The notes under the pieces: model-generated
The model's database searches: none
What the model was told of the DNA's origin: nothing
Seen by the model: only the letters and a program-made list of their open reading frames with translations
Shown here: positions 26,815 to 58,032 of the stretch, in pieces
Numbering within the stretch: the first letter of the stretch is position 1
How the letters are laid out: the number at the start of each line of letters is the position of its first letter
Assembly: GCA_963658575.1 (NCBI GenBank)
Contig: CAVKQB010000005.1
Coordinates: forward strand, 179 to 64,178
DNA from: Leyella stercorea
GTDB lineage: Bacteria > Bacteroidota > Bacteroidia > Bacteroidales > Paludibacteraceae
Direction: 5' to 3'
Length of the DNA stretch: 64,000 nt
Made by a program: the position numbers and the translations under genes

Positions 26815-27888
26815 TCATTTCTTCACCAAGATTCCCATGGCATCGAGCACTTTGTCGCGGAAATCGATGTTTTGCTGCACGCCGGCGAAGCGTTCGGCAC
26901 CTGGGCCAAAGGCAAACACAGGCACAGGCACGCCGCTGTGGTCGGGCTTGTTGAATTTGCATTCGACGTGGCCAGTGGCAAAATCGCCGTTGATGATGGA
27001 GAGTGCGCCAGTTTCGTGGTCGGCGGTAATCACCACGAGCGTGTTGCCGTCCTTGCGTGCAAAGTCGAGCACCTTGCCGATGGCGCGGTCGAAATCGAGC
27101 ATTTCGCGAATCATCTCTTCGCCGTTGTTGTTGTGGCATTGGTAGTCGATTTGCGAGCCTTCGACCATGAGGAAGAATCCGTTGGTGTCGCGCGCCAGCA
27201 CTTCGATGGCCTTTTCGACGGCCGATGGCAGGTAGTCGCCGCGCTCGGAGGCTATCGGCATATCGATGTCGGCCAGCGGAGCGAGTATTTTCGGGCTGTT
27301 CGACTTCAGCAGGTCGGCTTCGGTATAGACCACGTCGTAGCCTTTGTCGGCAAATTGGCGCGAGAGGTTTTGTCCGTCGGCACGCTGTTCGAGGTTTTGG
27401 CGGCCGCCGCCAATCAGCACGTCGATGTCGGCAGCGAGCATGTCGAGCGCGATTTCGTCGTACATTTTGCGCGAAATTTGGTGCGCGTAGAAGTCGGCCG
27501 GTGTGGCGTGGGTGAGCGGACACGTTACGACGATGCCCGTGGCTTTGCCGTTTTGGCCGGCGTAGTAGAGCGACGAGTAGAGCGGCGTGATGCTGTCGGG
27601 GGCAAGTCCGACCATGTTGTTGCGTGTTTTGCTGCCCGTGGCCAACGCTGTGCCGCCGGCCGCGCTATCGGTGATGTAGTTGTTGGCCGAGTAGGTTTTG
27701 CTGAATCCGGTGATGGGGCACTGCTCGATGTTGAGCGAGCCGCCATTGGCGGTGAGTGCGGCGTAGATTTGGTTGATTCCCATGCCGTCGCCAATCATGA
27801 ACACGACGTTTTTGACTTTTGGCTGCGCCAGAAGCGACGAGCAGCAGAGTGCTAATAATACTCCACAGAGAAATTTTTTAGTTTGCAT
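26815..27888 (-). CDS. alkaline phosphatase (PhoA family), secreted
   Basis: 357 aa with a signal peptide, VVFMIGDGMGINQ and DSAAGGTALATG (active-site Ser context). Confidence 0.9.
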   Translation of the reverse strand: MQTKKFLCGVLLALCCSSLLAQPKVKNVVFMIGDGMGINQIYAALTANGGSLNIEQCPITGFSKTYSANNYITDSAAGGTALATGSKTRNNMVGLAPDSITPLYSSLYYAGQNGKATGIVVTCPLTHATPADFYAHQISRKMYDEIALDMLAADIDVLIGGGRQNLEQRADGQNLSRQFADKGYDVVYTEADLLKSNSPKILAPLADIDMPIASERGDYLPSAVEKAIEVLARDTNGFFLMVEGSQIDYQCHNNNGEEMIREMLDFDRAIGKVLDFARKDGNTLVVITADHETGALSIINGDFATGHVECKFNKPDHSGVPVPVFAFGPGAERFAGVQQNIDFRDKVLDAMGILVKK

Positions 27889-28924
27889 ATTCGTATTGTA
27901 AATTTTTGAAAATATAATCTACAGGCGGGGTAAAGATATCTCCCTTTATGAGGCTCAATTTGTTTTTAGTGGCTGTAATAGCCAAATCCGATTGGTCGAT
28001 GCCAATCCATTTTCGTCCATTTCTTTGGGCAGCCGCCAACGTGGTACCGCTCCCACAGAAACAGTCCATCACAATACTGTCTTCATTGGAAGAGGTCTTG
28101 ATAATTAAATCCAACATCTCGGCATTTTTCTCGGTTGGGTAATTAGGATATTGTGGGTCTTTATATTCCCAAATATCCTGAACCCTTTTTCCGTCGCGCT
28201 CGTCGGCATAGATGATTTTGCGTGGATTGCCGTTCGACGACCATTCTATCAAACCGACCTTGTCCCATCTTTCCAATGTGGCGACATCTGTCCGCCAATG
28301 CCGCCCTTGCGGCGGGTAAATTCCCTTGAATGGCTGGTTGGATTTCCCGTTTTCGGTTTCGCCAGGGGCGTGAATGGGAACAGTTGTATAGCGTCGGCCG
28401 TTTCGGTCTATTTTCGGGAATAGTTTTTCCACATCTTTTTCCGTGTATTTTTCCCGTGGCTCGTTCCAAATAGGGAAAGATGTTTTGGTATAAAAAAGTA
28501 TCAAATCTTTTATATTGCCGTAACCGATTCTTTCAAAATTTTTCGGATTGCACTTTATGCGTGTAATGTCATTCCTAAAATTTTCGATGCCAAACACTTC
28601 GTCCATCATCACTTTTACATAATGGCCGATTTTGTAGTCGATATGCAGATAAACAGAGCCTTGGTCAGACAACAATTCCCGAATAAGAATCAAACGATTC
28701 CGCAAAAAATCGATAAAATCGCTCCCTTTTAACGTATCGGCATAGGCAATCTCTCCGTTGCGTGAATTGCTAATGGTCGAGGCGCGTCCGTTTGTGATAG
28801 TAAAATTGCCTCCTGTTGCAAAGGGAGGGTCGATATATACCAAATCAATCTTCCCGCCATATCCCTGTTCCAACAGATAGTTCAGCCCTGTAATGTTTTC
28901 ACTATGTATCAGTAGGTTTTTCAT
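27878..28924 (-). CDS. Type II DNA methyltransferase, beta-class (probable N6-adenine)
   Basis: 348 aa. Motif IV (IDPPFATGGNF) is near the N-terminus and motif I (DCFCGSGTTLAAA) near the C-terminus. AT-rich relative to flanking DNA. Its ATG overlaps the upstream endonuclease stop (TAATG). Confidence 0.85.
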   Translation of the reverse strand: MKNLLIHSENITGLNYLLEQGYGGKIDLVYIDPPFATGGNFTITNGRASTISNSRNGEIAYADTLKGSDFIDFLRNRLILIRELLSDQGSVYLHIDYKIGHYVKVMMDEVFGIENFRNDITRIKCNPKNFERIGYGNIKDLILFYTKTSFPIWNEPREKYTEKDVEKLFPKIDRNGRRYTTVPIHAPGETENGKSNQPFKGIYPPQGRHWRTDVATLERWDKVGLIEWSSNGNPRKIIYADERDGKRVQDIWEYKDPQYPNYPTEKNAEMLDLIIKTSSNEDSIVMDCFCGSGTTLAAAQRNGRKWIGIDQSDLAITATKNKLSLIKGDIFTPPVDYIFKNLQYEYAN

Positions 28925-29706
28925 TACAATTGATATAAAAATTCACGCAAAACCAAGGCACTCATAATATTGTATGACTTGTACGTTTCCGTTATTTCCC
29001 GATACATTTTGTTGTTGCCTTTTATGTAGAGTACACCATCGAGAATCGCTATTTTTTCCGCTTTTACACGTTTTGTTTCGACGGTCGAAATAGCATCGTT
29101 GAATTGAGCGTTTTGATGCCCTCCAAAATCAGTCAAAAACTTGGCTTCTCCAATCACATATTTTCCGTTGAAACGACCTACGAAATCAAGTCCCTTGTCT
29201 CTGTCATATCCCAACTCCTCTTTCGCAAAATCCATCATCAATTTATCGTTTCCATCGAGGATGGCATTCCCTTTTGATGAAAGGAACTTTTCCAGCCCTA
29301 CAGGTTTTATTCCTAAAGCCTTTGATTTGAGCCACTCCTTAAACATGGGACCAATTTGCCGATTGGTTTCTTTGGGTTCGCTGCAGCGTTCGTACAATTT
29401 TGACAATCCTAATTCATAAATTCTACCACAAAGACGGTTGATTGTTTCTGGATTCCTTTCGATGGCCGATTTATCTCTCTTTAAGTAAGCAACATAACTA
29501 TCTTTTATGGGAAACAAATCCAATTCCAATAGGGAGCGTATCAGTTGAACATTGTTTTTTTGTTTGAACGCTTTTTCCACATTTCCCCAAACATTACCGT
29601 TTATATCCCTTATCCCTTCTGGAATGGTAGGATATACGCGGAATAGGTCGTCCAAATAAGAACGTTGATTGGCGTATTCGATGCTGAGTTTTGTCCACTT
29701 TTTCAT
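28924..29706 (-). CDS. putative Type II restriction endonuclease (PD-(D/E)xK-like)
   Basis: 260 aa from the ATG at 29706 (MKKWTKLSIEY...). It has a candidate D...E-x-K motif (LDFVGRF...VIGEAKF), is translationally coupled to the methylase, and has AT-rich composition. The family was not identified. Confidence 0.6.
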   Translation of the reverse strand: MKKWTKLSIEYANQRSYLDDLFRVYPTIPEGIRDINGNVWGNVEKAFKQKNNVQLIRSLLELDLFPIKDSYVAYLKRDKSAIERNPETINRLCGRIYELGLSKLYERCSEPKETNRQIGPMFKEWLKSKALGIKPVGLEKFLSSKGNAILDGNDKLMMDFAKEELGYDRDKGLDFVGRFNGKYVIGEAKFLTDFGGHQNAQFNDAISTVETKRVKAEKIAILDGVLYIKGNNKMYREITETYKSYNIMSALVLREFLYQL

Positions 29707-35608: not shown

Positions 35609-35669
35609 TCGTAAGCCGTAAATAACACACTAAATAATCTTCAAATTTTCAAATCTTCAAACAATCACC

Positions 35670-37648: not shown

Positions 37649-38683
37649 GTGGACGCTATGAGAGTGCTTATCATCTGTTTTTCGGGCATCAGCAACGTGG
37701 CATCTGTTGTGCCACCGCTCGATGCGCTCGACAGGCGGTATCCTCAGCACGAATTTACGGTGTTGAGCAGGCACTTTTTGCAGCCGCTGTTCGCACATTT
37801 TGCGCACGTTACGTTTGTGGGAGCCGACATTCGCCGCAAGCACAAAGGGCTGCGTGGTGCGCTCAAACTCTTCGGCGAATTGCGCCGCCAGCGGTTCGAT
37901 GTGGTAGTCGATTTGCAAGATGCGCCGCGCACACGGCTATTGCGCCGGCTTTTTCGCCTTTTTGGTGCAAAAGTGGTAGTGGTCGACAAGCAGCGCGCCG
38001 AACGTCGCCGGTTGATACGCCGTGGAGCGTTGCGCTACAAGCCGCTGAAAACCATTTTCGAGCGTTACAGCGAAGCCTTCGGGCAGATAGGGCTGCAAAC
38101 CGACGACCAATTTGTGCGTATTCCGCCCGCTTCGGACGAAAAACGGCAGAAGGTGGTCGAAATATACGGCGAAAAACGCGGACATTGGATTGGCATCGCC
38201 CCACTGTCGATAGCGCGCGGCAAAACGTTGCCGTTTCGGAAGACAAAAAACGTCATCCGCCACTTCGACAGCCAGCCCGACACCAAGATATTTCTGTTTG
38301 GCGCAGGCGAGATGGAAAACGAACTCTTGGGCGATTGGCAGACCGTGTTCACCAACGTGTATGCCGTGCATACATCGCTCAAACTCGACGAAGAGTTGGC
38401 GCTGATGGAGCAGTTGGACGTGATGGTAACGATGGATTCGGGCAACATGCACTTGGCTGCGCTCACCGCCACGCCTGTGGTGAGCATTTGGGGAGCCACG
38501 CACCCGTATGCGGGCTTTGGCGGCTGGCGACAACCGGCCGAAAACCAAGTGGGCGTCGATTTCTCGTGCCGGCCATGCACCGCACACGAAGCCAAACGGT
38601 GCAAATACGGCGACTACCGCTGCCTCGAAAGCATTCCGTCGGAAAAGATAATCGGCACCATCGAACGAGTTATAAATAGTTAG
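37649..38683 (+). CDS. glycosyltransferase family 9 (heptosyltransferase-like)
   Basis: 344 aa. VTMDSGNMHLAAL resembles the GT9 DSGPMHLAAA motif, and the overall layout fits. The stop TAG is the first triplet of the downstream heptad tract. Confidence 0.75.
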   Translation: MDAMRVLIICFSGISNVASVVPPLDALDRRYPQHEFTVLSRHFLQPLFAHFAHVTFVGADIRRKHKGLRGALKLFGELRRQRFDVVVDLQDAPRTRLLRRLFRLFGAKVVVVDKQRAERRRLIRRGALRYKPLKTIFERYSEAFGQIGLQTDDQFVRIPPASDEKRQKVVEIYGEKRGHWIGIAPLSIARGKTLPFRKTKNVIRHFDSQPDTKIFLFGAGEMENELLGDWQTVFTNVYAVHTSLKLDEELALMEQLDVMVTMDSGNMHLAALTATPVVSIWGATHPYAGFGGWRQPAENQVGVDFSCRPCTAHEAKRCKYGDYRCLESIPSEKIIGTIERVINS

Positions 38684-39056
38684 TAGTGAGAAGTGAGTAA
38701 TTAGTAGTGAGGAGTGAGGAATGAGATTAGAAATGAGAAATTAGGAGTGAGGAATTAGGAGTTGTTGGGCGCGATTCTGTCCCTCTGCTTGGAGCGAAGC
38801 GGAAAGATAGGGGGACGAGGAGCGATAGCGACGGAGGGGGTTCTTTCCTAATTAAGAATTATGAATTAAGAATTTTTTCGGTAAGCGAGAGCAGAGTCAA
38901 ACTTGTTTGAACTATGCCGAGCGGAGAAAAAAAGCGCGTAGCGAATGAATAATAATCCTCAAATAACCAAATAACCAAATCCACAGAAACTTAGAAACGC
39001 GCGTAGCGCAATCAAATAACCAAATCCACAGAAATTTAGAAACAATACGAAAAACT
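38681..39056. repeat. intergenic repeat mosaic M6
   Basis: 89-nt C-free heptad tract (38681-38769). GTTGGGCGCG. A ~215-nt module (38775-38990) recurs at 41945-42150. Two copies of AAATAACCAAATCCACAGAAAnTTAGAAAC. GCGC-GTA-GCGC hairpin at 38999-39009. Confidence 0.85.
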
Positions 39057-39815
39057 ATGGGTAAAATAATTGCAATTGCCAACCAAAAAGGCGGTGTAGG
39101 CAAAACCACCACAAGCATCAATTTGGCGGCCTCGCTTGCGCACTACGGCAAGAAAGTGCTGCTCGTAGATGCCGACCCACAGGCCAACGCCTCGACGGGG
39201 CTCGGGTTCGACATCAAAAACCAAGACAAAACCATCTACCAAAGCCTCATCGGCAAAATAGAGATGCGCGAAGCCGTGCGCCACACCGAAGTCGAAAACC
39301 TCGACCTCGTTACGTCCGACATCAATCTGGTGGGCGTAGAGGTGGAACTGTACGAAGTGGCCGACCGCGAACTCTACATGCGCCGCGCGCTGAATCAGGT
39401 GAAAGACGACTACGACTACATACTGATAGACTGCTCGCCGTCGCTCGGACTGATTACGCTCAATGCGCTCACCGCCGCCAATTCAGTGATCATACCCGTG
39501 CAGAGCGAATACTTTGCGCTCGAAGGCATCGGCAAACTGCTGCACACCATCAAACTGCTGAAAGGCCAATTGAATCCGTCGCTCAAAATCGAAGGCTTCG
39601 TGCTGACCATGTTCGACGCACGCTTGCGCCACGCCAACCAAGTGGCCACCGAAGTGAAGAGCCATTTTGGCGATATGGTGTTCAACACTATGATTCAGCG
39701 CAACGTGAAACTGAGCGAAGCCGCCAGTTACGGGCAGCCAGTGCTGCAATACGACCCCGAATCGCGCGGCGCCATCAACTATCTCGATTTGGCCAAAGAA
39801 CTTATTAACCGTTAG
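39057..39815 (+). CDS. parA: chromosome partitioning ATPase ParA/Soj
   Basis: 252 aa starting MGKIIAIANQKGGVGKTTTSINLAASLA (deviant Walker A). Confidence 0.95.
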   Translation: MGKIIAIANQKGGVGKTTTSINLAASLAHYGKKVLLVDADPQANASTGLGFDIKNQDKTIYQSLIGKIEMREAVRHTEVENLDLVTSDINLVGVEVELYEVADRELYMRRALNQVKDDYDYILIDCSPSLGLITLNALTAANSVIIPVQSEYFALEGIGKLLHTIKLLKGQLNPSLKIEGFVLTMFDARLRHANQVATEVKSHFGDMVFNTMIQRNVKLSEAASYGQPVLQYDPESRGAINYLDLAKELINR

Positions 39816-40182
39816 TCGCAAGATATGAGTAGCAAGACACAAGACAATTAGAACAAAGAGCAATTGAATTAGTAGCAAGATATGAGTAGCAAGTAGCAAG
39901 AAAATTTTAGAAATGAGGAGTTAGGAGTGAGAAGTGAGGAATGCATAATTGTTCGCACCAAGTTGTCCTTGCTCTTTATTCTATGTTCTTTGTTCTAAAA
40001 AATTGCAAATCCCGCGCAACCAAATAACCAAAAACCTAAAAACAAAAATTGCGGTAGCAATTTTGAGAAACCTAGAAACGTGCGAAGCACGAGAAACTTA
40101 GAAACAGCGCGAAGCGCAAAAAACTTAGAAACCTAGAAACGTGCGTAGCACGAAAACAATCAACCAAAGATTTCAAAAACCA
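39813..40182. repeat. intergenic repeat mosaic M7 separating parA from parB
   Basis: Starts at the parA stop TAG. Contains 7-nt periodic TAGCAAG/TGAGGAG units, a shared ~50-nt module (39961-40007), and three GC-clamped GNA-triloop hairpins (40079-40091, 40107-40117, 40140-40152) interleaved with (C/T)TAGAAAC words. Confidence 0.85.
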
Positions 40183-41063: not shown

Positions 41064-41738
41064 ATGACCAAACGTCTTGCTCTCGCAATCGGTATTTTGG
41101 CGGCAAGCCTCGCAGGTTTGCACGCACAGACACCCGCAGACGGCTTCGCCCCACAAGTGCAAGCCGACGAGCAAGTGTTCACCGTGTCCGACACGGCCGT
41201 ATTTTTCACCGAAGCGCGGCCGGCACCCGTCCAACGCCACTACGACCACGAAGTGTGGCTGCCCGACCCCAAGAAATCGCTTTGGTACGCATTCATATTC
41301 CCCGGTTTGGGGCAAATATACAACCGCAGTTATTGGAAATTGCCGATAGTTTACGGCGGCACCATCGGGTTTGTCTATGGCATAACGTGGAACAACCGCT
41401 ACTACCAAGAGTACTCGCGCGCCTACCGCGATGTGATGGGCAGCAACCCCACGGGGCGCAGTTACGACAATCTGCTGCCGCCCGGCACCGACCCAACATC
41501 GGATTACGCCAAAAATTTGCTCAAAAGCCAGCACAACACCTACCGCCGCTACCGCGACTTGTGCATCGTGGGAGCCGTGGCGTTTTATGCGCTCACCATC
41601 GTCGAGGCCTATGTCGATGCGCAATTGGCCGACTTCGACATCAGTCCCGACCTGTCGATGCATGTGCGCCCCACCGTCTTTCTCACCGAAAACAACCAAA
41701 ACCCAAATTTCGGTGTGGGCGTGGGGATTAAATTTTAG
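41064..41738 (+). CDS. DUF5683 domain protein (conserved downstream of parB in Bacteroidetes)
   Basis: 224 aa with a signal peptide, then SLWYAFIFPGLGQIYNRSYWKLPIVYGG. It lies in frame inside the over-extended ORF 40446-41738. Confidence 0.75.
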   Translation: MTKRLALAIGILAASLAGLHAQTPADGFAPQVQADEQVFTVSDTAVFFTEARPAPVQRHYDHEVWLPDPKKSLWYAFIFPGLGQIYNRSYWKLPIVYGGTIGFVYGITWNNRYYQEYSRAYRDVMGSNPTGRSYDNLLPPGTDPTSDYAKNLLKSQHNTYRRYRDLCIVGAVAFYALTIVEAYVDAQLADFDISPDLSMHVRPTVFLTENNQNPNFGVGVGIKF

Positions 41739-42170
41739 TTAGCAGTTAGTAGTGAGCAGTGAGGAGTTAGGAATGAGGAGTGGTGCGGCGAAGCCGCAAT
41801 TTCAAGAACAAAGAATATAGAACATAGAGCAAAGACTTTTTAATTATCTAATTATTTAATTTCCAATTATTTAATCAATTTTAGATTTCGAATTGACAGA
41901 TTGAGGATTCAATGATTCAATAAATCAATAAGTCAATGATTCATTTCTGTCCCTCTGCCGAGCGCAGCGAGGATAGGGGGACGAGGAGCGACAGCGACGG
42001 AGGGGGTTGAAACCAATTAAGAATTAAGAATTTTTTCGGTAAGCGAGAGCAGAGTCAAACTTGTTTGAACTATGCCGAGCGGAGAAAAAATGCGCGCAGC
42101 GAATTAAGAATGAATAATAATCTCCAAATAATCAAATAACCAAATCTCCAAAAGCCAAAAAAACTTTCCT
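41736..42170. repeat. intergenic repeat mosaic M8
   Basis: TAG-initiated heptad tract, TGCGGC-GAA-GCCGCA hairpin (41784-41798), AT-rich word repeats (AATTATTTAAT, TCAATGATTCA), and the second copy of the ~215-nt module (41945-42150). Confidence 0.85.
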
Positions 42171-44897: not shown

Positions 44898-45989
44898 ATG
44901 GCAGCACACGATACAAATATCGACCTAAACGAGTACATGCGCCAAACCGAGCCGCAAAAAAACGACAAGGTAAAAGCATGGCAGGTAGCCATCGGCCTAC
45001 AAGCCGTCGATGGTTTGACCACGTCCGACTATTTGCTATCGACCGCCAAAAGACACATCGACGGCGACCTATCCATTGCCGAAGTGCAGGATTTGATTGG
45101 GCAATACTACACAACACAAGAAGGGCGCGCCCTCAACGAGGCAAAAAGAACCGAAGAGGCCGACAAAGTGGCGGCAAACATCACCGAAATACTCGGACAA
45201 AACACATTCACTTTTTCTCCAGCAGGATTTGCGGCAATTCACCGGCGGCTTTTCACGGGCATACTGCACCACGCAGGGCAATACCGCACCTACAACATCA
45301 CAAAACAAGAGTGGGTTTTGCGTGGCGACAGCGTTATCTACACCGACTACAGCATGATAGCCGACACCCTTGCCTTCGATTTCGAGCAAGAAAATCCATC
45401 GGCCTATACGCAGATGGACATGCCAACACTGATTCACCACATTTGCAAGTTCATTGCTGGCATTTGGCAGATACACCCATTCGAAGAGGGCAACACGCGC
45501 ACAACGGCCATTTTTACCATCAAATACCTGCGGAGTCTGGGGTTGAACGTGGACAATTCCGCCTTTTCCGAACACTCATGGTATTTCCGGAACGCGCTGG
45601 TACGCGCCAACTACCACAATTACCAAAAAGGCATTGCCGACACAAACGAATTTCTCGAACTCTTCTTCAGAAACCTACTGCTCGGAGAGCATAACAGCCT
45701 GAAAAACAGGTATATGCTCGTCGGTGCAACATGGCAACACCAGCAAAAAGTACCGGCAAAAGTACCGAGAAAAAGTACCGAGAAAAGTACCGAGAAAAGT
45801 ACCGAGAAAAGTACCGAGAAAATTTTGGCGCTCATGAAGCGCAAGCCCAGCATCACCATCAAGGAACTGTGCGCCGCCCTGCCTATGTCTGACAAAGGTG
45901 TGCGCAAAAACATAAACAAACTGAAAGAACAAGGCCGTTTGCGCCGCATTGGCCCCGACAAAGGCGGCTCGTGGCAAGTAACCGGCTGA
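44898..45989 (+). CDS. Fic/DOC-family protein with C-terminal winged-helix domain
   Basis: 363 aa with the Fic motif HPFEEGNTRTTAIF, a (STEK)4 linker repeat, and a C-terminal HTH-like region (ITIKELCAALPMSDKGVRKNINKLKEQGRLRRIG). Confidence 0.85.
   Translation: MAAHDTNIDLNEYMRQTEPQKNDKVKAWQVAIGLQAVDGLTTSDYLLSTAKRHIDGDLSIAEVQDLIGQYYTTQEGRALNEAKRTEEADKVAANITEILGQNTFTFSPAGFAAIHRRLFTGILHHAGQYRTYNITKQEWVLRGDSVIYTDYSMIADTLAFDFEQENPSAYTQMDMPTLIHHICKFIAGIWQIHPFEEGNTRTTAIFTIKYLRSLGLNVDNSAFSEHSWYFRNALVRANYHNYQKGIADTNEFLELFFRNLLLGEHNSLKNRYMLVGATWQHQQKVPAKVPRKSTEKSTEKSTEKSTEKILALMKRKPSITIKELCAALPMSDKGVRKNINKLKEQGRLRRIGPDKGGSWQVTG
45746..45823 (+). repeat. tandem AAAGTACCG(R)(S)A repeats inside the Fic gene
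   Basis: Four perfect 12-nt units AGTACCGAGAAA (45774-45821) are preceded by two degenerate units. A 13-nt unit shifts the reading frame of the repeat, from KVP to STE. Confidence 0.9.
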
Positions 45990-50748: not shown

Positions 50749-53700
50749 CTATTTCACCAGCACTTTTTGGTGGCCGATGGCGGCAGATTGCAGCCGGACA
50801 TATACCAGCGCGATGCCCGACGGGGCTGTGAGCGTGCAGACCGATGTGCCTACGGTGGGTGCGGCACTTGTCAGTAGCCGCCCGACAAGGTCGTAGACGC
50901 GTATCTCGGCAATGTCGCTCGAAGCCACCACCACGATGCTTTCCTGCGCGTTGGAGAAGGCGGTTATCTGCTCTACTCCATCTGTATCGATGGCTGGTAT
51001 GGCGTTGTCGGTCGGCGTGTCGTTGGGATTATCGGGAGTATCGGCCTCGCCTTGCAGATAGTAGCGTATCTCGTGGTTGGCCGGCGTAGCGATGCGGACA
51101 CAGATGTCGTTGTAGAGGCGCGTTTTTTCGCCCGTTTTGCTGTCGCAGAGGTAGCACTCTTCGCTCCAGTTGGTGCTGGTGTGGAAGTAGAGCGTCAGGC
51201 TGTCGGAGCGGAAATCGCTGTGCAGCACAAAGCCGAGCGGCACGGTTTTCATCTCCGGTCGCAAGTCGGCGGCTAGCGGCTGGTTGTCGGCCAGCGTGTA
51301 GATGTTCACGGGCGTGGTGAGTGTGTTGTCGTTCACGCCGTACTCCACACCAGAGGAGATTAAGCGTACATCTTCGTTGCTGTCGTAGCCGTTGGAGGTG
51401 AAATCCATCAGTGCCAACTGCGTTTCGCCGCGCTGGTATTGCCAATCGCCGTCTTTATCTTGTCCGCCGGAGAGTGCGGTTATCTTCATCAGTTCGGGGC
51501 GCAGGGTGCGACCTTGAGCGCGTGCGTGAGCCGAAGCCTGCCTTGTCGTGGTGCGGTTGCGCGGCACGAGGCTCAGGTGTTCGGGTTTGAGGCTTACCTC
51601 CACCGTGCGGATATCTCCCGTAACATCTTGGCTCGCCACCATAGCCGACTGCATCGGGCGGAGGAACAGGTCGGTGGTCGTTACATCGCGCTTGATGGTT
51701 TCCCACTTGCCATCGACCTCCACTTGATAAGAGCCAATGTTGAGTACGTTTTGGTTGTCGTCGAGGAATTTCGCCATATTGATGTACGCCATGGTCGGGT
51801 TGCCAAAGAGGAAACCTTGTTGCCCTGCGATGGGCGTGGCAGAGCCGTCGGTCTTTTGGTTGAGGATAGTCAGCGTGATGTGCATCGCCCCGTCGCTTGC
51901 TGGCACAAAACCGAGTCGGTATGCCGAGTCGCGGTCGAGAGTTTCCACCATGCCATTCGGTTGGAGCGTAACGGAGTCGTAGTATTCGTACTCGGTATCG
52001 GGTTTGGGTAGTTTGATTGTGAGCGACTGCGTGTCGTCGGTCGGTCCGAAGCCCGCCACGGCAAATCCCTGTCCGGGTTCGAGTTTCTTGCCCATCGTAT
52101 TCGACTCGATGAAGTCGGCCGTCGTGCTGTAGCGATAGTCCCACCCTGTGGGAGTTACCACGGTTACATTTTGGTTGTAGTACGAAGCCCATACGGCGTA
52201 GGCGGCATACTTGGTGCGTTCGCCTTGGAAGCCGTTCACCTCGAAGTCGGCACTGCTCTCGGTCGAGGCACCTGCGCTGTATTTGCCCGTGTGCGGCACA
52301 AATAGGTCGCCCGAATAGGTTGCTTGCATAGGCGATGCCACGGTGTACCAATCGTTGGCGGGCAGGGTAGCATTGACATACGCTTCGTTGTAGGCGAGAT
52401 ACTCTTGTCCGATGATTTTCGCGCCCGAACGGAACTGCACTTTTTTGCAGACATTGGTGTGATAGTGTACATCTTCGGGGTAGAGGATATACGGGTCGCA
52501 GTCGGGCTGAATGGTCGGGTACTTCATCTCGTCGAGGAAGTCGGCGTTATGCTCCGGCAGGATTACCATCGTGTTTTTGAGCGGCGCGTAGCCGTGGTCG
52601 AGCACTTTGCCGTCCACTATGCCGCGCCAGTTGCGGTCGTCACCCCAGAGGTAGAGGCTGTCGCCCGTCATGGCGGTCGGTGTCCAGATGACGGTATCTG
52701 GCACAACCACCACATTGATGTACGAGTAGCCCAGCAGACAGCCGCTGTCGCCGTCGTCCATTTCGGCGGTGGTGCCGCGCACTTTCATCTGCAGGCGGAG
52801 TGTGTATTCGTAGCCAGCGCGCATCGGGTGCGAGTTCACAACCCAGAGCCCGGGGTGCCCCTCTTTCCAGCCCGATTGGTTGTTGTGCACCCATTTCATC
52901 GAATCCACATGGTCTTGGTCGATGTAGTGGAAGACGATGCTGTCGCCCACGTCGTAGTAATTGGCCGAAGCACCGTCGTAGCCGTTGAACTTGTCTTGCG
53001 AGAAGTGCATCGAGAAGCCCGGAGTTCCAATCAGTGGGCTGACCACGGGGTCGGTGCTGAGCACCACTTGGGTACTGTCGTAGCAGATGGCCACATTTTT
53101 TCCTATCTCCTTAATCGGCACATAGAATTGGTTGTGTGCGTTGTGTTCCGAGATGCGCACGCGGGGCACATCGTTGCCCGTGATGTCGGCGGTCGCCTTG
53201 TTGCTCAGGTTCAGCACATAGTCGCTCTTCACGCTGAAAACCATGATGTAGGTCGGGTTGGCGCATTCGTTCAGAATGTAGGTATTGCCGTTGTACACAG
53301 TTTTGGCCGTACCGGCAATCGGGTATATCCAGTAGCGGCAGGTATCCTCGGAGCGCATGTATATCTGTTGGCGTTCCTGCCAGAGAACGAGTTTTTTCTG
53401 TTCCACGAGGGTTTTGATTATCTCGTAGTGGCTTTGGTCGTCCCAATACTCTGTGTTGGCGTTCACCTTGCTCAAGTCGGTGGCAAGGTAGTTCGATTTT
53501 TGGTTTATGGTGTCGCGGCGCAGGTCGGCTATGGCGGCATCTACTTGCTCGCGGGTGTAGCCGTATGCCGCCTCGAATGCAGCGTTGCATTGTGTTTCAC
53601 GCTCCGTCGTCATCTCTTGGTAGGCGACGTCCTCGTCGGGGTCGAGGTAGGAGTAGTACCACGCGTCGTCGCTATCTATGCCCAAAAGCCAGTCGCCCTT

Positions 53701-56700
53701 GGCGTATGCCTGCAGATGAATGAGTTTGTCGCCATCGGTGAGCGTGTCGGTTACGAGAATCTCCAGCGGATAGAGGCCGTTGGCGCACTGTCCGGCGGCG
53801 GGATAGGTTTCGCCGTTGAATACGAATGCCGTCTTCTCGAATACGGGAAGTTTGGTACGCATGGCGCAGGCGGCTTCGCTCAGTTCGTCTTTCGCGTAGG
53901 CGGTGCGCACTTCGTAATTCTTCTTGGCAGAGAGTGGGCTTTGGTGTACCAATTGCGCCAGATAGATTATCCAGCGTTCCTTGCCCGACTCGTAGTTGCG
54001 AATGTAGCGCAGCAGCGTGGTATCGCTATCGTATTGCGCAATCGAGTCCAACAGGGCTTTGGCCGAAACGGCAGTTTCCGCTTCCGTGGGCGTGAAATCT
54101 TTTGCCGGAGTAACCAGATAGCCGTAGTCGGCCGATACGGACTTGCCGTCTTGATAGTAGTTGGTTTTTATGGCCTTGCCTTTCGACACGTCGTAGATGT
54201 CGTAGAAGAGTTGTGTGTTGTATTTATCCACGCCAGTGAATTGCGTGTAATCCGCTTTGATGATGGTTACCATCTGGTCGCCTTTGGCGTTGCGGCTGCA
54301 GTCGGTGCTGGCTTGGAACGATTCGAGTGGCGTAGGCGAAGCGTAGAGGTAGATGTCGTCCAACAGGAAGTCGTTGCCGTCGTTGTCGGAGGCGTAGTTC
54401 ATCACGCTGATGCGCGTCTCGTCGTAGTTTTGTGCGCCTACCAGCGGGAAGTTCACCTGCTGCCAATTGACGCTGCCGTCGAGCGGACCCGTGCAGAATG
54501 CGCCTATCGACTCCCATTCGCCGCCCGCAACGCGCCCTTCGATGTCGAATTGCAGAATCGGCTGTGTCTTGTTGTTGTAGTTGGCGTTGGCCACCCAAGC
54601 GGCGCAGTAGAGTTGCTGTCCCGAGCAGATGGTGGCGTTGGTGGAGAGGGTTACGACCTTGCCAGGCAACTGCGCGCCGTCCACATAGAGGCAGTAGCCG
54701 TTTTCGGCTCCGCCGTGTTGCGCAATGTTTTTGCCCCAATAGGCGTATTGTCCCTGTTCGCTCGGACAATTCGTGCCTATCGCATTCACTATGGCATATT
54801 CGCCGTAGAACGGGAATGGAATTTGGTCGCCGCTTCCACTCATGCTTCGTGTGCCACGGAACGACTGTCCTTGCGTTACCGAATAGGGATAGCAGTAGCC
54901 AAAACTGCTCTCTTGGGCACCGAGCGGTTTGGGATAGATGACGCAGTTGGTGGTGCCGGGTTTGTCGTAGTCGAAGTTCTGCTCGGCAAGCAGCACATAG
55001 TTGCGCTCGATGTCCTCTTTGGTGATGAGCGCAGTGGTCGATGGGCCGTAGTCCGAGGCGACGGCGAAATGTATCGTCCAGCGGGCAAGCAGGAGCGTAT
55101 CGGCCAGACTGATGCCGTTGTATTTGTCCCATATCGTCTTGCCAAACGAGCCGCCGTAGGTGCCGTTGGCAGCAGGCTCGATGCGGTATTCATAGACTAC
55201 CGAATCTGGTATTGCCCGCTGTACGGTGCGGAAATCGTAGCGCGAGCCAAGCGTGTTGCGCGCTTGTGGATAATCGGTTCCGTCCGCCACTTGCATGGCT
55301 GGAGTCTGCAACACGCCGTTTTTGTAGAAGCGCACCTCTACCGAGTCCAAGTTCGCGCTCATCGAGAGGCGCAACAGGGTGTCGCGCGGCGTGCCGAGGG
55401 TGTTTATCTTCACGGGAACGAAGTAGCAGAGGTCGCTCGGGCGGTCCATCGTGGCATTGTCGTTGTAGGGATAGGCCGAGGCGTATTTGGTGCGGAGAAT
55501 GACATTCTTGCCGACAGGCGCAGTGATGGTGTAATCCTCGAAATAGTTGCCACTCTTGGCGGTGAATTTCGAGAGCGAGTCGGCCATTTGGCTTGCGGGG
55601 CGCAGGTGGAATATCTGGCGGTAACTGATAGTCGGCTCTTGCACCTGTTTGGCAGAGGCGAGGTCTATCTTGTAGTCCGTGTAGTTGCTCATATCCACGG
55701 CGATATCGCGCTCCGCGGGCAGGTCGTTGCCGGTGGTGTCCCAGCCAAGCACGACGGGAATGACCATGTTCGACAGGGCGGCTTCTTGCTCGTTCAGCGA
55801 GCCAGCCTCGTCGAGCCCAGCCCACATCCAGCCTCTGCCCTTCTCCATGGCGTAGTACAAGCCCTGCGAGGTGGACGGCGTGCTGTTGATGGAGTCGTAG
55901 AGCCAAAGGCTCACGCCGTTGTCGTTGATGTTTTTGGCGGGCGGCCGTTGGTAGAAATCGCTTTGAGTCTTGTAAGTGCCGTCCTTGCGGCTGCGGTAGA
56001 AGCGCGGGTCTGCGCCTGTGTTGTAGTCGTACCAGCGTTGCCAGCCGAAGAAGTTACGCTCGCGGGGACGCAGTTCCACCTTTTCGCCAGGGTAATAGTA
56101 GATGGTGGTCTCGTGGGTATGCACGCTCTGCCGTCCCTCGTCATCGACGGTGGTGTAGCCCCAGCCGCCTTGTGGAACAAAATCTATTTCGCCTGCCGAG
56201 GCGTGGTTCAACTGCTCGATGGGAATGACGCGCGTGTAGGTCGTCTTCATCTCTTTGTTTTTGAAATAGTGCAGCAGCACGTTCGAGCGGTTAACGTTCA
56301 GCGGGTTGGCTTCGGCGGTAAGCGTAATGCTCGTGCCGCCTTCGTCGAACTCTTTGTCCGCCGTAATGGTCAGCCAACTGCAAGGGTCTTCCTCCAACTT
56401 GGCAGAGTGTTCCACGCGGTCGAGCAGTTCCTCCGAGCCAGGAGTAAGTTTCTCCCGCCCAAGCTCGATGGCGGCCTTCTCTACGCGCTCTTTGGTGTAG
56501 AGTTTGATGGTGTTCTCCACCACGAGCGAGTCGTAGGTAACCTCCACCGACCCTCCATCGGCGGGGAAAATAATTTGGCTTTGGCTCAGATAAGGCACGA
56601 GTTTCTGCTCGTGGTAGTAGTGGTACGACTCACGGATAATAGGCTGCTTGTAGTAGTACACCTCTTGCCCGTTCTTGGTAATGGCAAAACGCAGCGTATC

Positions 56701-58032
56701 GGTGAAGTCCGCCCAATAGGCACCGTCGGGACGGGAATAGTAGGTGCCTGTTACGTAGTTGAGCGGGCTGCGGCCTTTGGGGAAGAACTGAACGACAAAC
56801 CACTGCATCTTAAACGGGTCGGGGTCGTCGTCCGTACCCCAGTCCAAACTGTCTTTCATCACGCGGTAGTCTATCATCAGACGGGCGGTGTCGCGGTACT
56901 GCATGCCCCACTCTGCCCCGGGTTGGTTGTAGATGCCAGGAGCGGTGATGTCGCTATACCACTTGTAGACGGGCAAACTCTTGCCGCCGTCGTTTATCAA
57001 AGAGCAGGTGTGACCGTAGCCGCGTTTCTGCATCTTACGGAAATCCAGCGTGAGTGTATTTTCGGAGTATAGCCATTCGGTGTCGTAGCCGTCCTGCACG
57101 CCCGCTACGGAGTAGTAGCCCGACCAGATGGTCATCTGCGGGTAGATATAGAGCATGGCGGTGCTGTCTGCCTCTGCCTTGGCACTGTCTGGCTCGTAGG
57201 CGTAGTAGGTGTCCGAGCACCAAGTGGTGGCTATCAGGCTGTCTTGGTCTTCGGCATACGACCACTTCTCGTAGTAGGCGGGGTGAATGGTGGTGGTGCT
57301 GGGGTCGGAGGTGTAAGCCCAGCGGTCGTTTTTCTTGTCGAAATAGAGGTAGTATTCCGTGCCGGCTCCGTCCGACACAAGCGGGTATGCCAAGGTGCGC
57401 AGGTGCGTTTTGTAGTCCAGCACGCGCGTCCATTGGTGGTCGATGGCCGACGAATTTTCGTATGCGTCAACAAGGGTTATCGTTACCGTGCCGTCGGTGC
57501 CGACCTCGGTGCGCACCCATTGACCGGTAGCAAGATTTTGGTAGCGGCGGTAGTTGGTGCCGTCGTTGTCGCCTTGTACCACGCGCCAGAGATTGACGGT
57601 AGAAGCGTCGGTGGGCAATACGGTGGCCGAAGCGGCTATGGTGGTGCCATCAGCACTGATGGTCATATAGACGAATTTCACCTCTTCGCGGTAGTAGTGT
57701 ACGGTCTGCGTGCCGTCCGTCGCCGTGATGGTGTCGGAGTAGTAGAAGAGCGAACGCCCGTAGGCCGTCTTCTTGCCCGTGTATTCTCGCTTCGAAATTT
57801 CTGTGATAGAGGTGCTTACGGGATAACCAAATAGGCAGGTGTCGCCTGCTGCGATGGGATTGCTACCCGAAGCGGAGCGGGTGTTGTCGTCGTAAGTGTC
57901 GATGACCAATCCTGCCATGTTCGCCATGTGCAGATTGCTCCACAAATTGCCGGCCTGCAGGCCTCCTACGGCGATGACCGCCGCTATCGCTATTGCGCCA
58001 CTTACTACACCCAACTGGATACGCTTTTTCAT
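50749..58032 (-). CDS. giant (2427 aa) secreted protein with T9SS C-terminal sorting domain; function unknown
   Basis: N-terminal signal/anchor (MKKRIQLGVVSGAIAIAAVIAVGG). The last ~80 aa (ITAFSNAQESIVVVASSDIAEIRVYDLVGRLL...VYVRLQ...KVLVK) resemble a Por secretion tail. Rich in Tyr, Trp, Asp and Thr, with no obvious internal tandem repeats. Confidence 0.8.
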   Translation of the reverse strand: MKKRIQLGVVSGAIAIAAVIAVGGLQAGNLWSNLHMANMAGLVIDTYDDNTRSASGSNPIAAGDTCLFGYPVSTSITEISKREYTGKKTAYGRSLFYYSDTITATDGTQTVHYYREEVKFVYMTISADGTTIAASATVLPTDASTVNLWRVVQGDNDGTNYRRYQNLATGQWVRTEVGTDGTVTITLVDAYENSSAIDHQWTRVLDYKTHLRTLAYPLVSDGAGTEYYLYFDKKNDRWAYTSDPSTTTIHPAYYEKWSYAEDQDSLIATTWCSDTYYAYEPDSAKAEADSTAMLYIYPQMTIWSGYYSVAGVQDGYDTEWLYSENTLTLDFRKMQKRGYGHTCSLINDGGKSLPVYKWYSDITAPGIYNQPGAEWGMQYRDTARLMIDYRVMKDSLDWGTDDDPDPFKMQWFVVQFFPKGRSPLNYVTGTYYSRPDGAYWADFTDTLRFAITKNGQEVYYYKQPIIRESYHYYHEQKLVPYLSQSQIIFPADGGSVEVTYDSLVVENTIKLYTKERVEKAAIELGREKLTPGSEELLDRVEHSAKLEEDPCSWLTITADKEFDEGGTSITLTAEANPLNVNRSNVLLHYFKNKEMKTTYTRVIPIEQLNHASAGEIDFVPQGGWGYTTVDDEGRQSVHTHETTIYYYPGEKVELRPRERNFFGWQRWYDYNTGADPRFYRSRKDGTYKTQSDFYQRPPAKNINDNGVSLWLYDSINSTPSTSQGLYYAMEKGRGWMWAGLDEAGSLNEQEAALSNMVIPVVLGWDTTGNDLPAERDIAVDMSNYTDYKIDLASAKQVQEPTISYRQIFHLRPASQMADSLSKFTAKSGNYFEDYTITAPVGKNVILRTKYASAYPYNDNATMDRPSDLCYFVPVKINTLGTPRDTLLRLSMSANLDSVEVRFYKNGVLQTPAMQVADGTDYPQARNTLGSRYDFRTVQRAIPDSVVYEYRIEPAANGTYGGSFGKTIWDKYNGISLADTLLLARWTIHFAVASDYGPSTTALITKEDIERNYVLLAEQNFDYDKPGTTNCVIYPKPLGAQESSFGYCYPYSVTQGQSFRGTRSMSGSGDQIPFPFYGEYAIVNAIGTNCPSEQGQYAYWGKNIAQHGGAENGYCLYVDGAQLPGKVVTLSTNATICSGQQLYCAAWVANANYNNKTQPILQFDIEGRVAGGEWESIGAFCTGPLDGSVNWQQVNFPLVGAQNYDETRISVMNYASDNDGNDFLLDDIYLYASPTPLESFQASTDCSRNAKGDQMVTIIKADYTQFTGVDKYNTQLFYDIYDVSKGKAIKTNYYQDGKSVSADYGYLVTPAKDFTPTEAETAVSAKALLDSIAQYDSDTTLLRYIRNYESGKERWIIYLAQLVHQSPLSAKKNYEVRTAYAKDELSEAACAMRTKLPVFEKTAFVFNGETYPAAGQCANGLYPLEILVTDTLTDGDKLIHLQAYAKGDWLLGIDSDDAWYYSYLDPDEDVAYQEMTTERETQCNAAFEAAYGYTREQVDAAIADLRRDTINQKSNYLATDLSKVNANTEYWDDQSHYEIIKTLVEQKKLVLWQERQQIYMRSEDTCRYWIYPIAGTAKTVYNGNTYILNECANPTYIMVFSVKSDYVLNLSNKATADITGNDVPRVRISEHNAHNQFYVPIKEIGKNVAICYDSTQVVLSTDPVVSPLIGTPGFSMHFSQDKFNGYDGASANYYDVGDSIVFHYIDQDHVDSMKWVHNNQSGWKEGHPGLWVVNSHPMRAGYEYTLRLQMKVRGTTAEMDDGDSGCLLGYSYINVVVVPDTVIWTPTAMTGDSLYLWGDDRNWRGIVDGKVLDHGYAPLKNTMVILPEHNADFLDEMKYPTIQPDCDPYILYPEDVHYHTNVCKKVQFRSGAKIIGQEYLAYNEAYVNATLPANDWYTVASPMQATYSGDLFVPHTGKYSAGASTESSADFEVNGFQGERTKYAAYAVWASYYNQNVTVVTPTGWDYRYSTTADFIESNTMGKKLEPGQGFAVAGFGPTDDTQSLTIKLPKPDTEYEYYDSVTLQPNGMVETLDRDSAYRLGFVPASDGAMHITLTILNQKTDGSATPIAGQQGFLFGNPTMAYINMAKFLDDNQNVLNIGSYQVEVDGKWETIKRDVTTTDLFLRPMQSAMVASQDVTGDIRTVEVSLKPEHLSLVPRNRTTTRQASAHARAQGRTLRPELMKITALSGGQDKDGDWQYQRGETQLALMDFTSNGYDSNEDVRLISSGVEYGVNDNTLTTPVNIYTLADNQPLAADLRPEMKTVPLGFVLHSDFRSDSLTLYFHTSTNWSEECYLCDSKTGEKTRLYNDICVRIATPANHEIRYYLQGEADTPDNPNDTPTDNAIPAIDTDGVEQITAFSNAQESIVVVASSDIAEIRVYDLVGRLLTSAAPTVGTSVCTLTAPSGIALVYVRLQSAAIGHQKVLVK

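Follow-up and report, generated by a model that had tools for sequence, protein, structure and literature searches.

What are the repeats that fill the intergenic spacers of this locus, and how does one block come to be identical in two of them? In the window, by which we mean the whole 64-kb stretch of DNA analysed here, a preliminary description had listed eight spacers built from shared modules, which agree with our gene calls (made with a codon-usage caller that reproduces the public ones), and a 67-nt block present without change at two loci. This identity is real and slightly longer than first given: positions 38863-38932 and 42021-42090 match exactly over 70 nt, whereas the longest exact repeat in ten dinucleotide-preserving shuffles of the window measured 15-17 nt. 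The larger unit of about 205 nt said to surround it was likewise recovered, with 38775-38981 and 41945-42146 aligning at 84.6% identity over 214 columns.

Rather than one single element, the 205-nt unit is a composite of modules. Its parts stand in a fixed order: a module termed M1, an (AATTAAG)n linker, a hairpin module termed S, a mini-hairpin with a GNA triloop and tandem arrays of 7-8-nt units. In copy A these are M1 at 38771-38842, the linker at 38850-38874, S at 38873-38932, the mini-hairpin CGC-GTA-GCG at 38933-38946 and a start-proximal (CAAATAAC)n array at 38960-38980; in copy B, M1 lies at 41945-42008, the linker at 42015-42032, S at 42031-42090, the mini-hairpin TGCGCGCAGCGAAT at 42091-42104 and the start-proximal array at 42124-42145 (all on the + strand). 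We found the M1-linker-S composite twice more, in L028. A partial, inverted copy without the 67-nt block is also present, as had been proposed: 41907-41990 and 58922-59005 are 93% complementary over 84 nt, and the M1 there (copy C, 58905-58967, - strand) joins an (AATTAAG)n array directly, without S. Folding of the whole composite gave a z-score that was not significant on either strand, and the predicted structured units are the individual modules and the pair of M1 with a second element, E, not the composite as a whole.

M1 is G+C-rich and 64-72 nt long. Copy A, of a subtype with apical CTTGGAGCGAAGCGGAAAG, has GCGATTCT as its foot and an irregular hairpin GTCCCTCT...ATAGGGGGAC whose triloop is GCGAAGC, as well as another mini-hairpin, GCGATAGC, and the motif GGGGGTT; copies B and C belong to the subtype with apical CCGAGCGCAGCGAGG. 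The predicted fold of copy A reaches -22.0 kcal/mol on the + strand versus -11.5 on the complement, and three G.T/U pairs are valid on one strand only. Two longer elements resemble M1, namely E (59005-59128, + strand; core at 59009-59075, with a hairpin region of ~62 nt) and the more diverged D (20308-20423, + strand), which contains GTCCCCTTTGCAAGGGGAC, GAAAAACGGAACGTTTTTC, GGGGTT and an AATTAAG array. E lies inverted beside M1 copy C, and the two are predicted to form one long hairpin (DNA fold of 58895-59085, z = -5.2). This was the one pair folded, and all 16 E copies that we found are inverted beside an M1, at distances of 24-177 nt; 24 of the 40 M1 copies are unpaired, and S has no inverted partner. 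CGATTCT stands at the foot of the M1 and E hairpins and is missing from S. A small peptide encoded by the single open frame of M1 was considered and rejected, given the stop-filled flanks and the copies in both orientations.

S is a discrete structured hairpin module that is conserved far beyond the present genome. This 60-nt core of the 67-nt block, identical in its two copies, has an outer stem TTTTTTC/GAAAAAA and an apical stem around CAAAC-TT-GTTTG; the internal loop AGCGAGA/CGAGCG could form tandem G.A pairs. In the covariation analysis 97.3% of cells were paired as against 84% in shuffles (0/500), and double-sided, compensatory changes occurred in nine pairs of the stem, with slid controls at 30-45%. 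We detected S in 20 gut or rumen metagenome contigs with GC contents of 34-57%, and BLAST identified an S-like module in one Phocaeicola replicon and one gut phage contig; pattern scans of viral contigs for M1, S and the module G gave zero matches. S usually lies 13-75 nt past a stop codon and in sense in unrelated contigs, with about 12 sense orientations to one antisense in the metagenome contigs, and in other organisms equivalents of the GNA mini-hairpin are likewise found 3' of it. In some contigs S overlaps the end of an ORF. Because S is conserved so far beyond this genome, its identity at the two loci is partly a matter of constraint on the family and does not require a very recent copy. 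It is a candidate for a new structured motif in Bacteroidales and in the phages that infect them.

Tandem arrays occur at ~1.3 per kb in dozens of different 7- and 8-nt units, and the period is 7 or 8 nt in 314 of 337 arrays. Stop-proximal arrays are purine-rich and start-proximal ones A/C-rich. The arrays furnish stop codons of upstream genes: the first unit of an AGTGAGG/AGTTAGT-type heptamer array (38680-38762, + strand) holds the TAG stop of the glycosyltransferase-9 gene, a second stop-proximal heptamer array (41737-41782, + strand) begins at the TAG stop of the DUF5683 gene, and one of AGGAGTG type on the minus strand (59256-59307) begins at the TAG stop of gene 59306-61228. At 39813-39940 (+ strand), AGTCGCAAG/AGTAGCAAG arrays followed by GAGGAGT begin at the ParA stop codon, which the array itself supplied, the ancestral ...NRN-TAA reading ...NR-TAG in the window. 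Further sense arrays lie downstream of gene 18424-20166 (TTAGTAG, then six units of TGAGGAG; 20225-20304, + strand) and of the minus-strand gene 26193-26693 (heptamers and octamers; 26112-26177, - strand). Smaller modules recur where they had been reported. The one first placed at 20422-20466 and 39961-40007 is a 49-nt module, CCAAGTTGTCCTTG.TCTTTATTCTATGTTCTTTGTTCTAAAAAATTGC, at 20419-20467 (+ strand) and 39958-40006 with 98% identity, and ATTGCG(A/G)TAGCAATTTTGAGAAA is found at both of its expected places; a hairpin AAAATTGC-GATA-GCAATTTT at 20460-20479 (+ strand) has a second copy at 40045-40064 with the loop GGTA.

Placement of the modules is tied to genes. In 282 kb of the window and related contigs we counted 114 copies (40 M1, 27 G, 16 E, 16 S and 15 H), all of them outside called genes. 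Divergent spacers of at least 150 nt are empty in 10 of 12 cases, whereas co-directional ones are mostly filled and convergent ones are filled as well. Relative to the upstream gene, AGGAGTG-type arrays are 27 times sense and never antisense, and the sense:antisense ratio is 10:4 for M1 and 10:2 for G. The modules had been thought to be combined in different orders and orientations, but their arrangement is not random: order and polarity are strongly conserved with respect to the direction of the flanking genes, and (G)-(rcE)-M1-(G)-(S) recurs in many spacers and species with G, M1 and S co-oriented.

Comparison with relatives indicates how these spacers arose. The nearest named relatives of the host lineage, which includes the species of assemblies GCA_963653575.1 and GCA_963659365.1, are Paludibacteraceae MAGs. 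In the GT9-parA-parB-DUF5683-HHH_3 cluster, the three spacers measure 373, 367 and 432 nt in the window and 172-363, 9 and 340-351 nt in L043/L044, while in L045, L046 and L047 they are 4-23 nt long or the genes overlap. Synonymous-site identity of the window is ~0.75 both to L045 and to L043, and since equally close relatives get by at these three junctions with 4-23 nt or with genes that overlap, the spacers are lineage-specific insertions. The invaded sites include junctions within compact gene clusters. L043, the title of whose record names Acutalibacteraceae (such titles are unreliable), is syntenic with the window, and its ParB is 88% identical. Non-coding DNA makes up 10.6% of the window and 15-22% of syntenic ~20-kb loci of sister species, as against 4-7% in two relatives without the repeats and 11% in a third, a rough comparison because the regions differ. 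M1 is present in at least eight species-level MAGs at 93-100% identity to the consensus (the higher value being taken where two BLAST segments were merged). Copies of the modules are found outside the window, both elsewhere in its genome and in related species, and Rfam holds no match to them, so that neither of the two findings that the preliminary description had named as fatal to its proposal, restriction to the window or membership in a catalogued family, applies.

Among strains, array units are gained or lost, deletions of 53 and 61 nt have occurred between internal repeats, and spacer segments are replaced wholesale between strains with identical ParA or ParB. The suggestion that the 67-nt identity stems from recent mobility or gene conversion is therefore borne out in part, as these deletions and replacements are good evidence of recombination or gene conversion, but the identity of the block also reflects the family constraint on S. 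No clean filled-versus-empty polymorphism of a single module was seen in the strain and related-locus spacers compared, which come mostly from short-read MAG contigs that can be chimeric at repeats. Nor was a target-site duplication seen around D, E or S (at S, which sits within a tandem array, the search for one is uninformative), and the comparisons thus delimit no mobile unit.

We consider it probable that the spacers hold a REP/BIME-like mosaic of non-autonomous hairpin repeats that has spread into the 3' flanks of genes within a single lineage of uncultured gut Bacteroidales, and the invasion appears to be recent. Copying of the hairpin modules would proceed through single-stranded hairpins, with an HUH/Y1 'REP-associated' transposase of the Bacteroidetes kind as the most plausible enzyme; the mosaics would then be remodelled as 7-8-nt units slip, stretches between internal repeats are deleted and gene conversion acts among spacers. 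Only insertions downstream of genes would persist; the stop-rich arrays there may block read-through extensions, and 15-30 nt ahead of the next start codon would be retained. Because the modules would be transcribed in sense within 3' UTRs or intercistronic RNA, a secondary role as RNA 3'-end or processing hairpins is possible.

The analogy with E. coli BIMEs drawn in the preliminary description is supported by mosaics of hairpin modules that are strictly extragenic, lie downstream of genes, occur in many copies in the genome and related species and are polymorphic among strains. Like the REP/BIME elements of E. coli and other Proteobacteria, these are multi-copy imperfect palindromes that alternate with other conserved motifs in regular mosaics, after genes or between co-directional ones and rarely in divergent promoter regions. 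REP ends can also donate stop codons, and GTAG REPs are known donors of TAG stops (PMC3733652). Against this likeness, the modules of the window are 60-72 nt long as compared with 20-40 nt for canonical REPs, and M1, E and S have no GT[AG]G foot. Unlike in BIMEs, the modules follow one another in an order that is polar relative to the upstream gene, and dense 7-8-nt arrays, missing from BIMEs, are present; the host belongs to an uncultured Bacteroidales lineage, and the modules are not known to be linked to gyrase, IHF or RAYT.

The REPIN/RAYT system offers another parallel. The inverted E beside M1 is predicted to form a long hairpin as a REP doublet does, the foot sequence (here CGATTCT) is conserved, and canonical GTAG-footed and 'double-foot' REPs share the mosaics of related MAGs. 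There the H family, which at 24-28 nt falls within the canonical REP size and is absent from the window, has GTAG, which is also found in the reverse complement of G. For Bacteroidetes, subclasses 2.4 and 2.6 of the REP-associated transposases have been described, and the repeats reported to flank the latter are atypical and weakly structured (PMC6006769). Unlike in REPIN/RAYT, most M1 copies are singletons, S stands without an inverted partner, and no cognate transposase gene was found: HUH...Y motifs typical of TnpA_REP/IS200 were missing from all six frames of the 537 kb searched, a sample far below genome size and too small to establish absence. The Neisseria intergenic mosaics and Correia elements and the pneumococcal BOX elements are also modular intergenic mosaics with a variable number of modules, transcribed with neighbouring genes (boxA-boxB(n)-boxC in BOX; RS units between dRS3 in Neisseria), but they are unrelated in sequence, nothing like the dRS3 recombination site is evident here, and the array units of the window are 7-8 nt long.

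It is possible, though we hold it less likely, that selection maintains the modules as cis-acting RNA elements in 3' UTRs and between cistrons (for example as barriers to exonucleases, sites of processing or terminators without a U-tract), duplicated because they are useful, with mobility incidental. Strict array polarity, conserved order and the sense bias of the modules fit a constraint at the RNA level at least as well as a selfish one: polarity tracks the upstream gene (27:0 for the arrays; 10:4, 10:2 and 9:2 for modules), and array composition differs between stop- and start-proximal positions. The sense placement of S just past stop codons in unrelated contigs of widely differing GC content, as well as on the Phocaeicola replicon and the phage contig, points the same way, as do the strand-specific wobble pairs and the compensatory changes. 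However, equally close relatives manage with minimal or no spacers at the same junctions, and occupancy and composition vary among strains of one species. Moreover, 72 nt are near-identical across species that are ~25% diverged at synonymous sites, which is hard to achieve by selection on structure only. No terminator-like site was found in the spacers between 38000 and 43000, and no T-run lies 3' of S or M1, so that neither resembles an intrinsic terminator with a G+C-rich hairpin and a T-run. The whole window gave no Rfam hits at gathering thresholds, three spacer regions searched at E <= 5 gave chance-level matches only (the best at 28.6 bits versus a threshold of 72), and no tRNA or tmRNA was found. 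Some H copies of related MAGs do have T-runs.

More speculatively, S, M1 and E might represent an undescribed class of polar mobile hairpins that target sites just past stop codons in gut and rumen Bacteroidales, with S widespread, partly phage-borne and absent from Rfam. The same machinery, not ordinary slippage, would then generate the 7-8-nt arrays, and an ordered 'grammar' would rebuild 3' UTRs and split operons. We think this unlikely.

A REP/BIME-like mosaic also accounts better for the data than classical MITEs, by which the M1-like elements would derive from a DDE-transposase insertion sequence and the arrays would have grown from target-site duplications or be footprints of excision. 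D and E, at 115-125 nt, have inverted ends of 11-12 nt (GTTGGGCGCGAG/TTCGCGTCCAAG and TTTTGGGGCGCA/TGCGCCCAAAA, respectively), and the predominant array periods of 7 or 8 nt equal the size of many DDE target duplications. Yet no direct duplication was seen flanking D or E, the inverted end has no right-hand partner in M1 copies A, B and C, and no related insertion sequence was seen in the sequence examined. Identical array units are found at many loci, a recurrence that random target sites would not yield. Heptanucleotide repeats, moreover, are known to dominate the long SSRs of many bacteria in which no transposon is involved (Mrazek 2007, cited in PMC4679880), which leaves the MITE origin improbable.

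The likeness to the Porphyromonas gingivalis BrickBuilt MITE noted previously proved generic only. BrickBuilt is also a Bacteroidales repeat that is always intergenic and has a tandem repeat within short inverted ends, but it is one element, composed of a 23-nt minisatellite with leader and tail and present in 19 copies in one species (PMC4596501), whereas the window has arrays with 7-8-nt periods in place of the 23-nt minisatellite and many module types that several species share. The arrays agree with the heptanucleotide long SSRs (Mrazek 2007), tandem repeats whose units are mostly 7 nt within a 5-11-nt range, in their non-coding location and in a copy number that varies among strains. TAACTGA heptamer repeats, as described in PMC4679880, are similarly intergenic and gene-oriented, provide stops in all three frames, sometimes overlap the upstream stop, and are reported from a few Bacteroidetes including Paludibacter. 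The variety and density of array units in the window, their position-specific order from stop to start and the interleaved hairpins set it apart from both.

The preliminary description had also suggested a functional small transcript. That the 67-nt block is an independently transcribed small-RNA gene in two copies is highly unlikely, because each copy of S has different flanks, which therefore provide no common promoter or terminator. The hairpin is conserved and covarying, and both copies of the block contain a weak sigma-70-like match on the opposite strand, but to our knowledge the sigma-70 consensus is inapplicable to Bacteroidota promoters, and a scan of this type is uninformative for them. 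S also behaves as one module of a mosaic, overlaps ORF ends in some contigs and has no Rfam match. Assembly artefacts can be dismissed for practical purposes: although related MAG contigs often end within repeats, the same spacers with the same modules recur in four independent NCBI MAGs and two Logan assemblies, and the modules also in JGI and ENA metagenomes.

If the spacers do hold a REP/BIME-like mosaic, the intergenic space of an uncultured gut Bacteroidales lineage would have undergone recent, massive colonisation by structured modules that are ordered and oriented according to the direction of genes. Naturally matched pairs of filled and empty junctions, such as parA-parB with 367 nt versus 9-20 nt, would allow REP/BIME-like effects on operon expression to be tested in a phylum whose translation initiation does not use Shine-Dalgarno pairing. 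The modules would supply candidate substrates of the REP-associated transposases specific to Bacteroidetes, the repeats of which are known only as 'atypical'. Many module copies lie at contig ends, so assembly breaks at the repeats, which would account for the short contigs in MAGs of the host lineage.

The 67-nt block reported as identical at two loci in the preliminary description is present and extends to an exact repeat of 70 nt (38863-38932 and 42021-42090), whereas the longest exact repeat in ten dinucleotide-preserving shuffles of the window was at most 17 nt. The two composites that contain it (38775-38981 and 41945-42146) align with 84.6% identity over 214 columns and match their earlier description, the inverted partial copy lacking the block was recovered at 58905-58967, and the remaining shared modules were found where they had been placed. 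The 205-nt unit is a composite of separate parts. It begins with M1, a G+C-rich module (38771-38842, 41945-42008 and, on the minus strand, 58905-58967) in which a conserved foot (GCGATTCT) is combined with an irregular hairpin, GTCCCYCT...ATAGGGGGAC, capped by a C-GNA-G triloop (GCGAAGC, GCGCAGC), with a second mini-hairpin that reads GCGAYAGC or GCGTAGC, and with a GGGGGTT run. An (AATTAAG)n linker array lies 3′ of M1, followed by S, a 60-nt hairpin at the core of the 67-nt block (38873-38932 and 42031-42090), then by a CGC-GNA-GCG mini-hairpin and, beyond this, by arrays of 7-8-nt units, (GAATGAAT) and (CAAATAAC). The M1-like elements D (20308-20423) and E (59005-59128) have inverted ends of 11-12 nt. 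The whole composite folds no better than shuffles on either strand. M1 folds at −22.0 kcal/mol on its own strand versus −11.5 kcal/mol on the complement, and three of its pairs are G·T/U wobbles that would become A·C mismatches on the opposite strand.

The window carries parA-parB-DUF5683, an order typical of Bacteroidota. ParA proteins identical to its own occur in four NCBI MAGs and two Logan assemblies, and the nearest named relatives of its ParB are in Paludibacteraceae MAGs (76% identity; about 58% for Prevotellaceae). The modules are not restricted to this stretch: a search with an exact 18-mer of M1 returned 35 additional copies, many at contig ends, in at least eight species-level MAGs. 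In a k-mer census of 282 kb, the common vocabulary comprised M1 (40 copies), the module families G (27 copies; GGCTTTTCCCCCTTCGGGGGAAACGGGAAAGGGGGCTAC) and H (15 copies), E and S (16 copies each) and dozens of 7-8-nt array units. Across species, M1 copies match the consensus at 93-100% identity (taking the higher BLAST segment where two were merged) despite about 25% synonymous divergence, which implies either that copies are still being made or exchanged or that the sequence is very strongly constrained. Several 'cleanbin' MAG record titles among the compared loci (L008-L042 and L043) clash with their content, the implausible ones being Erysipelotrichaceae, Flexilinea, Acutalibacteraceae and Segatella copri. 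L043 (CAVKTI...), filed under Acutalibacteraceae, shares synteny with the window and encodes an 88% identical ParB, so the first three of these labels are wrong, and taxon labels across the project appear scrambled.

All 114 module copies lie outside called genes, and 10 of 12 divergent spacers of at least 150 nt are empty of modules and arrays. Between co-directional genes, sense:antisense counts are 10:4 for M1, 10:2 for G, 9:2 for H, 3:2 for S and 1:4 for E; in metagenome contigs about 12 S copies are sense and one is antisense, with S usually 13-75 nt downstream of a stop codon. This polarity favors the main rival explanation, in which selection keeps the modules as RNA elements of 3′ UTRs; that reading is compatible with their spread as a mosaic. 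Where G, M1 and S are neighbors, they share one orientation and follow the order (G)-(rcE)-M1-(G)-(S), and the M1-linker-S composite occurs twice in another species (L028). E adjoins M1 in inverted orientation in 16 of 16 copies, the same arrangement as in REPINs, the inverted doublets of extragenic palindromes (REPs); the E-M1 pair in the window forms one long DNA hairpin (−40.3 vs −24.1 ± 3.1 kcal/mol, z = −5.2). The arrays follow an order of their own, with (AAGTAGC), (AGGAGTG/AAGTGAG/AATTAGG) and (AAAGTGTG) from the stop side, then the hairpin modules with AT-rich flanking units in the middle, and (AACATAG), (AAACTAG), (AACTAATC), (AAATAACC) and (ACACTTTC) ahead of the start codon. AGGAGTG-type arrays were sense in 27 cases and antisense in none.

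The gene order SLT-asparaginase-GlmS-RibD-rSAM-GT-GT9-ParA-ParB-DUF5683-HHH_3 is kept in five related loci, and the spacers are lineage-specific insertions. The GT9-ParA, ParA-ParB and DUF5683-HHH_3 spacers measure 373, 367 and 432 nt in the window, 172, 9 and 340 nt in L043, and 363, 9 and 351 nt in L044; they are 6, 13 and 23 nt in L045, 13, 20 and 18 nt in L046, and an overlap, 13 and 4 nt in L047. L045 and L043 are equally close to the window (synonymous-site identity about 0.75 for both). L043 and L044 have identical ParB and spacers that differ in large parts, and the final 27 nt upstream of parA are those of the window in L043 and different in L044. Among strains with identical ParA, single 7-nt units have been gained or lost, deletions of 53 and 61 nt lie between internal repeats, and a 215-nt segment with an E element stands in place of the window's 50 nt of (GATTCAAT)n in short-read contigs whose joins at repeats are possibly chimeric. 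We saw no clean single-module insertion allele among the compared loci and strains. Both the equally close relatives without modules and the turnover between strains weaken the reading as selected 3′ UTR elements.

The arrays either begin at the stop codon of the preceding gene or overlap it. Stop codons lie in or abut the first array unit at 38681-38683, 39813-39815, 41736-41738 and 59306-59308, and also at 26193-26195, 26815-26817 and 21344-21346. The arrays supply the stop codons, since the window's ParA is shorter by the last residue than that of relatives (...NRN-TAA there, ...NR-TAG(TCGCAAG...) here) and the C-terminal tail of GT9 is also lost: the tail of L045 is replaced in the window, L043 and L044, with the stop inside a first array unit that is different in each. 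The DUF5683 stop is kept, and the array begins directly after it. Sense-strand stop codons are present in 22 of the 25 arrays beginning at most 8 nt from a stop codon, and a period of 7 or 8 nt places array stops in all three frames.

TRF identified 337 intergenic arrays in 284 kb (about 1.3 per kb), which make up about a third of intergenic DNA. Of these, 196 have a 7-nt and 118 an 8-nt period (314 of 337), and periods of 4-6 and 9-11 nt were nearly absent (6 nt in 2, 9 nt in 6, 5 or 10 nt in none). So sharp a period is not obviously predicted by slippage alone. Arrays in the window lie at 20225-20304, 21346-21373, 26112-26177, 26770-26805, 35636-35661, 38680-38762, 39885-39940, 41737-41943, 58841-59005 and 59188-59307, and L008-L044 also carry them. 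Heptanucleotide units are the dominant kind among the long simple-sequence repeats of several bacteria (Mrazek 2007, as cited in PMC4679880), and oriented, stop-rich TAACTGA heptamers are known from Beggiatoaceae, Cyanobacteria and a few Bacteroidetes including Paludibacter (PMC4679880); array density, unit diversity and positional order here exceed those reports.

S extends beyond this lineage. A degenerate-pattern search found it in 20 gut and rumen metagenome contigs (GC 0.34 to 0.57), and BLAST located an S-like module in a Phocaeicola massiliensis replicon (OY726012.1; L068, 2490-2560), where two co-directional genes flank it, and, with identical sequence, in a human gut phage contig (MT836274.1; L069, 740-810). 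This hairpin, in which the apical stem is compensated (CGAAC/GTTCG) and the mini-hairpin reads GAC-GAA-GTC, directly follows a stop codon; the shared sequence is a possible vehicle for horizontal spread. Across 19 distinct copies of S, standard pairs filled 97.3% of cells versus 84% when shuffled (0 of 500 shuffles as high), nine pairs had changed on both sides, and sliding the partners by 1-3 columns left 30-45% of cells paired. The outer stem varies from TTTTTTC/GAAAAAA to TTTTGC/GCAAAA, ATCTGC/GCAGAT, TTCCGC/GCGGAA and CTTTGC/GCAAAG; the covarying positions were free of search-pattern constraint. The internal loop, AGCGAGA opposite CGAGCG, is invariant, in part because the search pattern imposed it, and can be drawn as putative G-C pairs flanking tandem G·A pairs. 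Tandem S-like modules in L065 (1900-2080) have this loop (AGCGAGAGCA...TGCCGAGCG) and the outer stem in common and differ in their apical hairpins, which suggests that loop and outer stem are the recognized parts. S is a candidate for a new structured motif in Bacteroidales and in their phages.

We conclude that the spacers are a REP/BIME-like mosaic of non-autonomous hairpin modules, in support of the BIME-like interpretation first proposed. Rfam searches of the whole window and of three spacer regions matched no catalogued family, and BrickBuilt, which in P. gingivalis is a single element containing a 23-nt minisatellite (PMC4596501), bears only a loose likeness. The window contains no canonical GTAG REPs; in related MAGs they occur in the same mosaics (GTAG, then GGACGCAC-CGA-GTGCGTCC), with compensating stem variants, 'double-foot' forms (GTAG...CTAC) and inverted doublets. 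A 'Bacteroidaceae bacterium' MAG (L039), which also has a diverged M1, carries inverted GTAG doublets (GTAGGGACACGGCAYGCCGTGTCC) at 541-640 and 4282-4380 that are REPIN-like, their REPs being about 75 nt apart. Among the REP-associated Y1 transposases of Bacteroidetes described by Quentin et al, subclass 2.4 has long and double-foot REPs, and the flanking repeats of subclass 2.6 are atypical, weakly structured and without GT[AG]G (PMC6006769); according to Di Nocera et al, GTAG REPs often donate a TAG stop to neighboring ORFs (PMC3733652). Read against these studies, the REPIN-like pairing of E with M1, the strand-specific folds that carry C-GNA-G loops and the co-occurring canonical REPs lead us to infer that a Y1/HUH transposase acting on single-stranded hairpins may propagate the modules; no transposase was found within 537 kb. 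The modules would spread into the 3′ flanks of genes, be reshuffled through slippage, deletion between repeats and gene conversion, and be tolerated where arrays rich in stop codons close off the preceding ORF and the following gene keeps its leader. The interest lies in the scale and orderliness of this intergenic invasion and in the unexplained 7-8-nt periodicity.

A low-GC island at 10843-15897 (GC 0.35-0.39) encodes a DndE-domain/AAA protein, an SMC-like AAA_23 ATPase and a PAPS-reductase-domain protein; this gene content resembles that of a dnd-type DNA phosphorothioation cluster, probably of horizontal origin. Another, at 27878-29706 (GC about 0.39), encodes an N6/N4 DNA methylase and a Tsp45I-family type II restriction enzyme, a pair also found beside the syntenic region of L001 and L003. 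On the minus strand, a 2427-residue ORF with a very strong coding signal (50749-58032) had no Pfam match at E ≤ 1e-5, and Pfam gave none for the neighboring genes (58060-58692 and 59306-61228). Within the 613-nt mosaic spacer, a canonical intrinsic terminator (59155-59192, minus strand; GCACGGGAT-TTGT-AATCCCGTGC then T7) gave a weak, sub-threshold Rfam match to the Bacteroides rteR sRNA (28.6 bits vs a threshold of 72). A 12-nt tandem repeat, AAAAGTACCGAG, at 45746-45822 (6.3 copies, 93% matches) lies within the called ORF 44898-45989 and would encode a repeated tetrapeptide.
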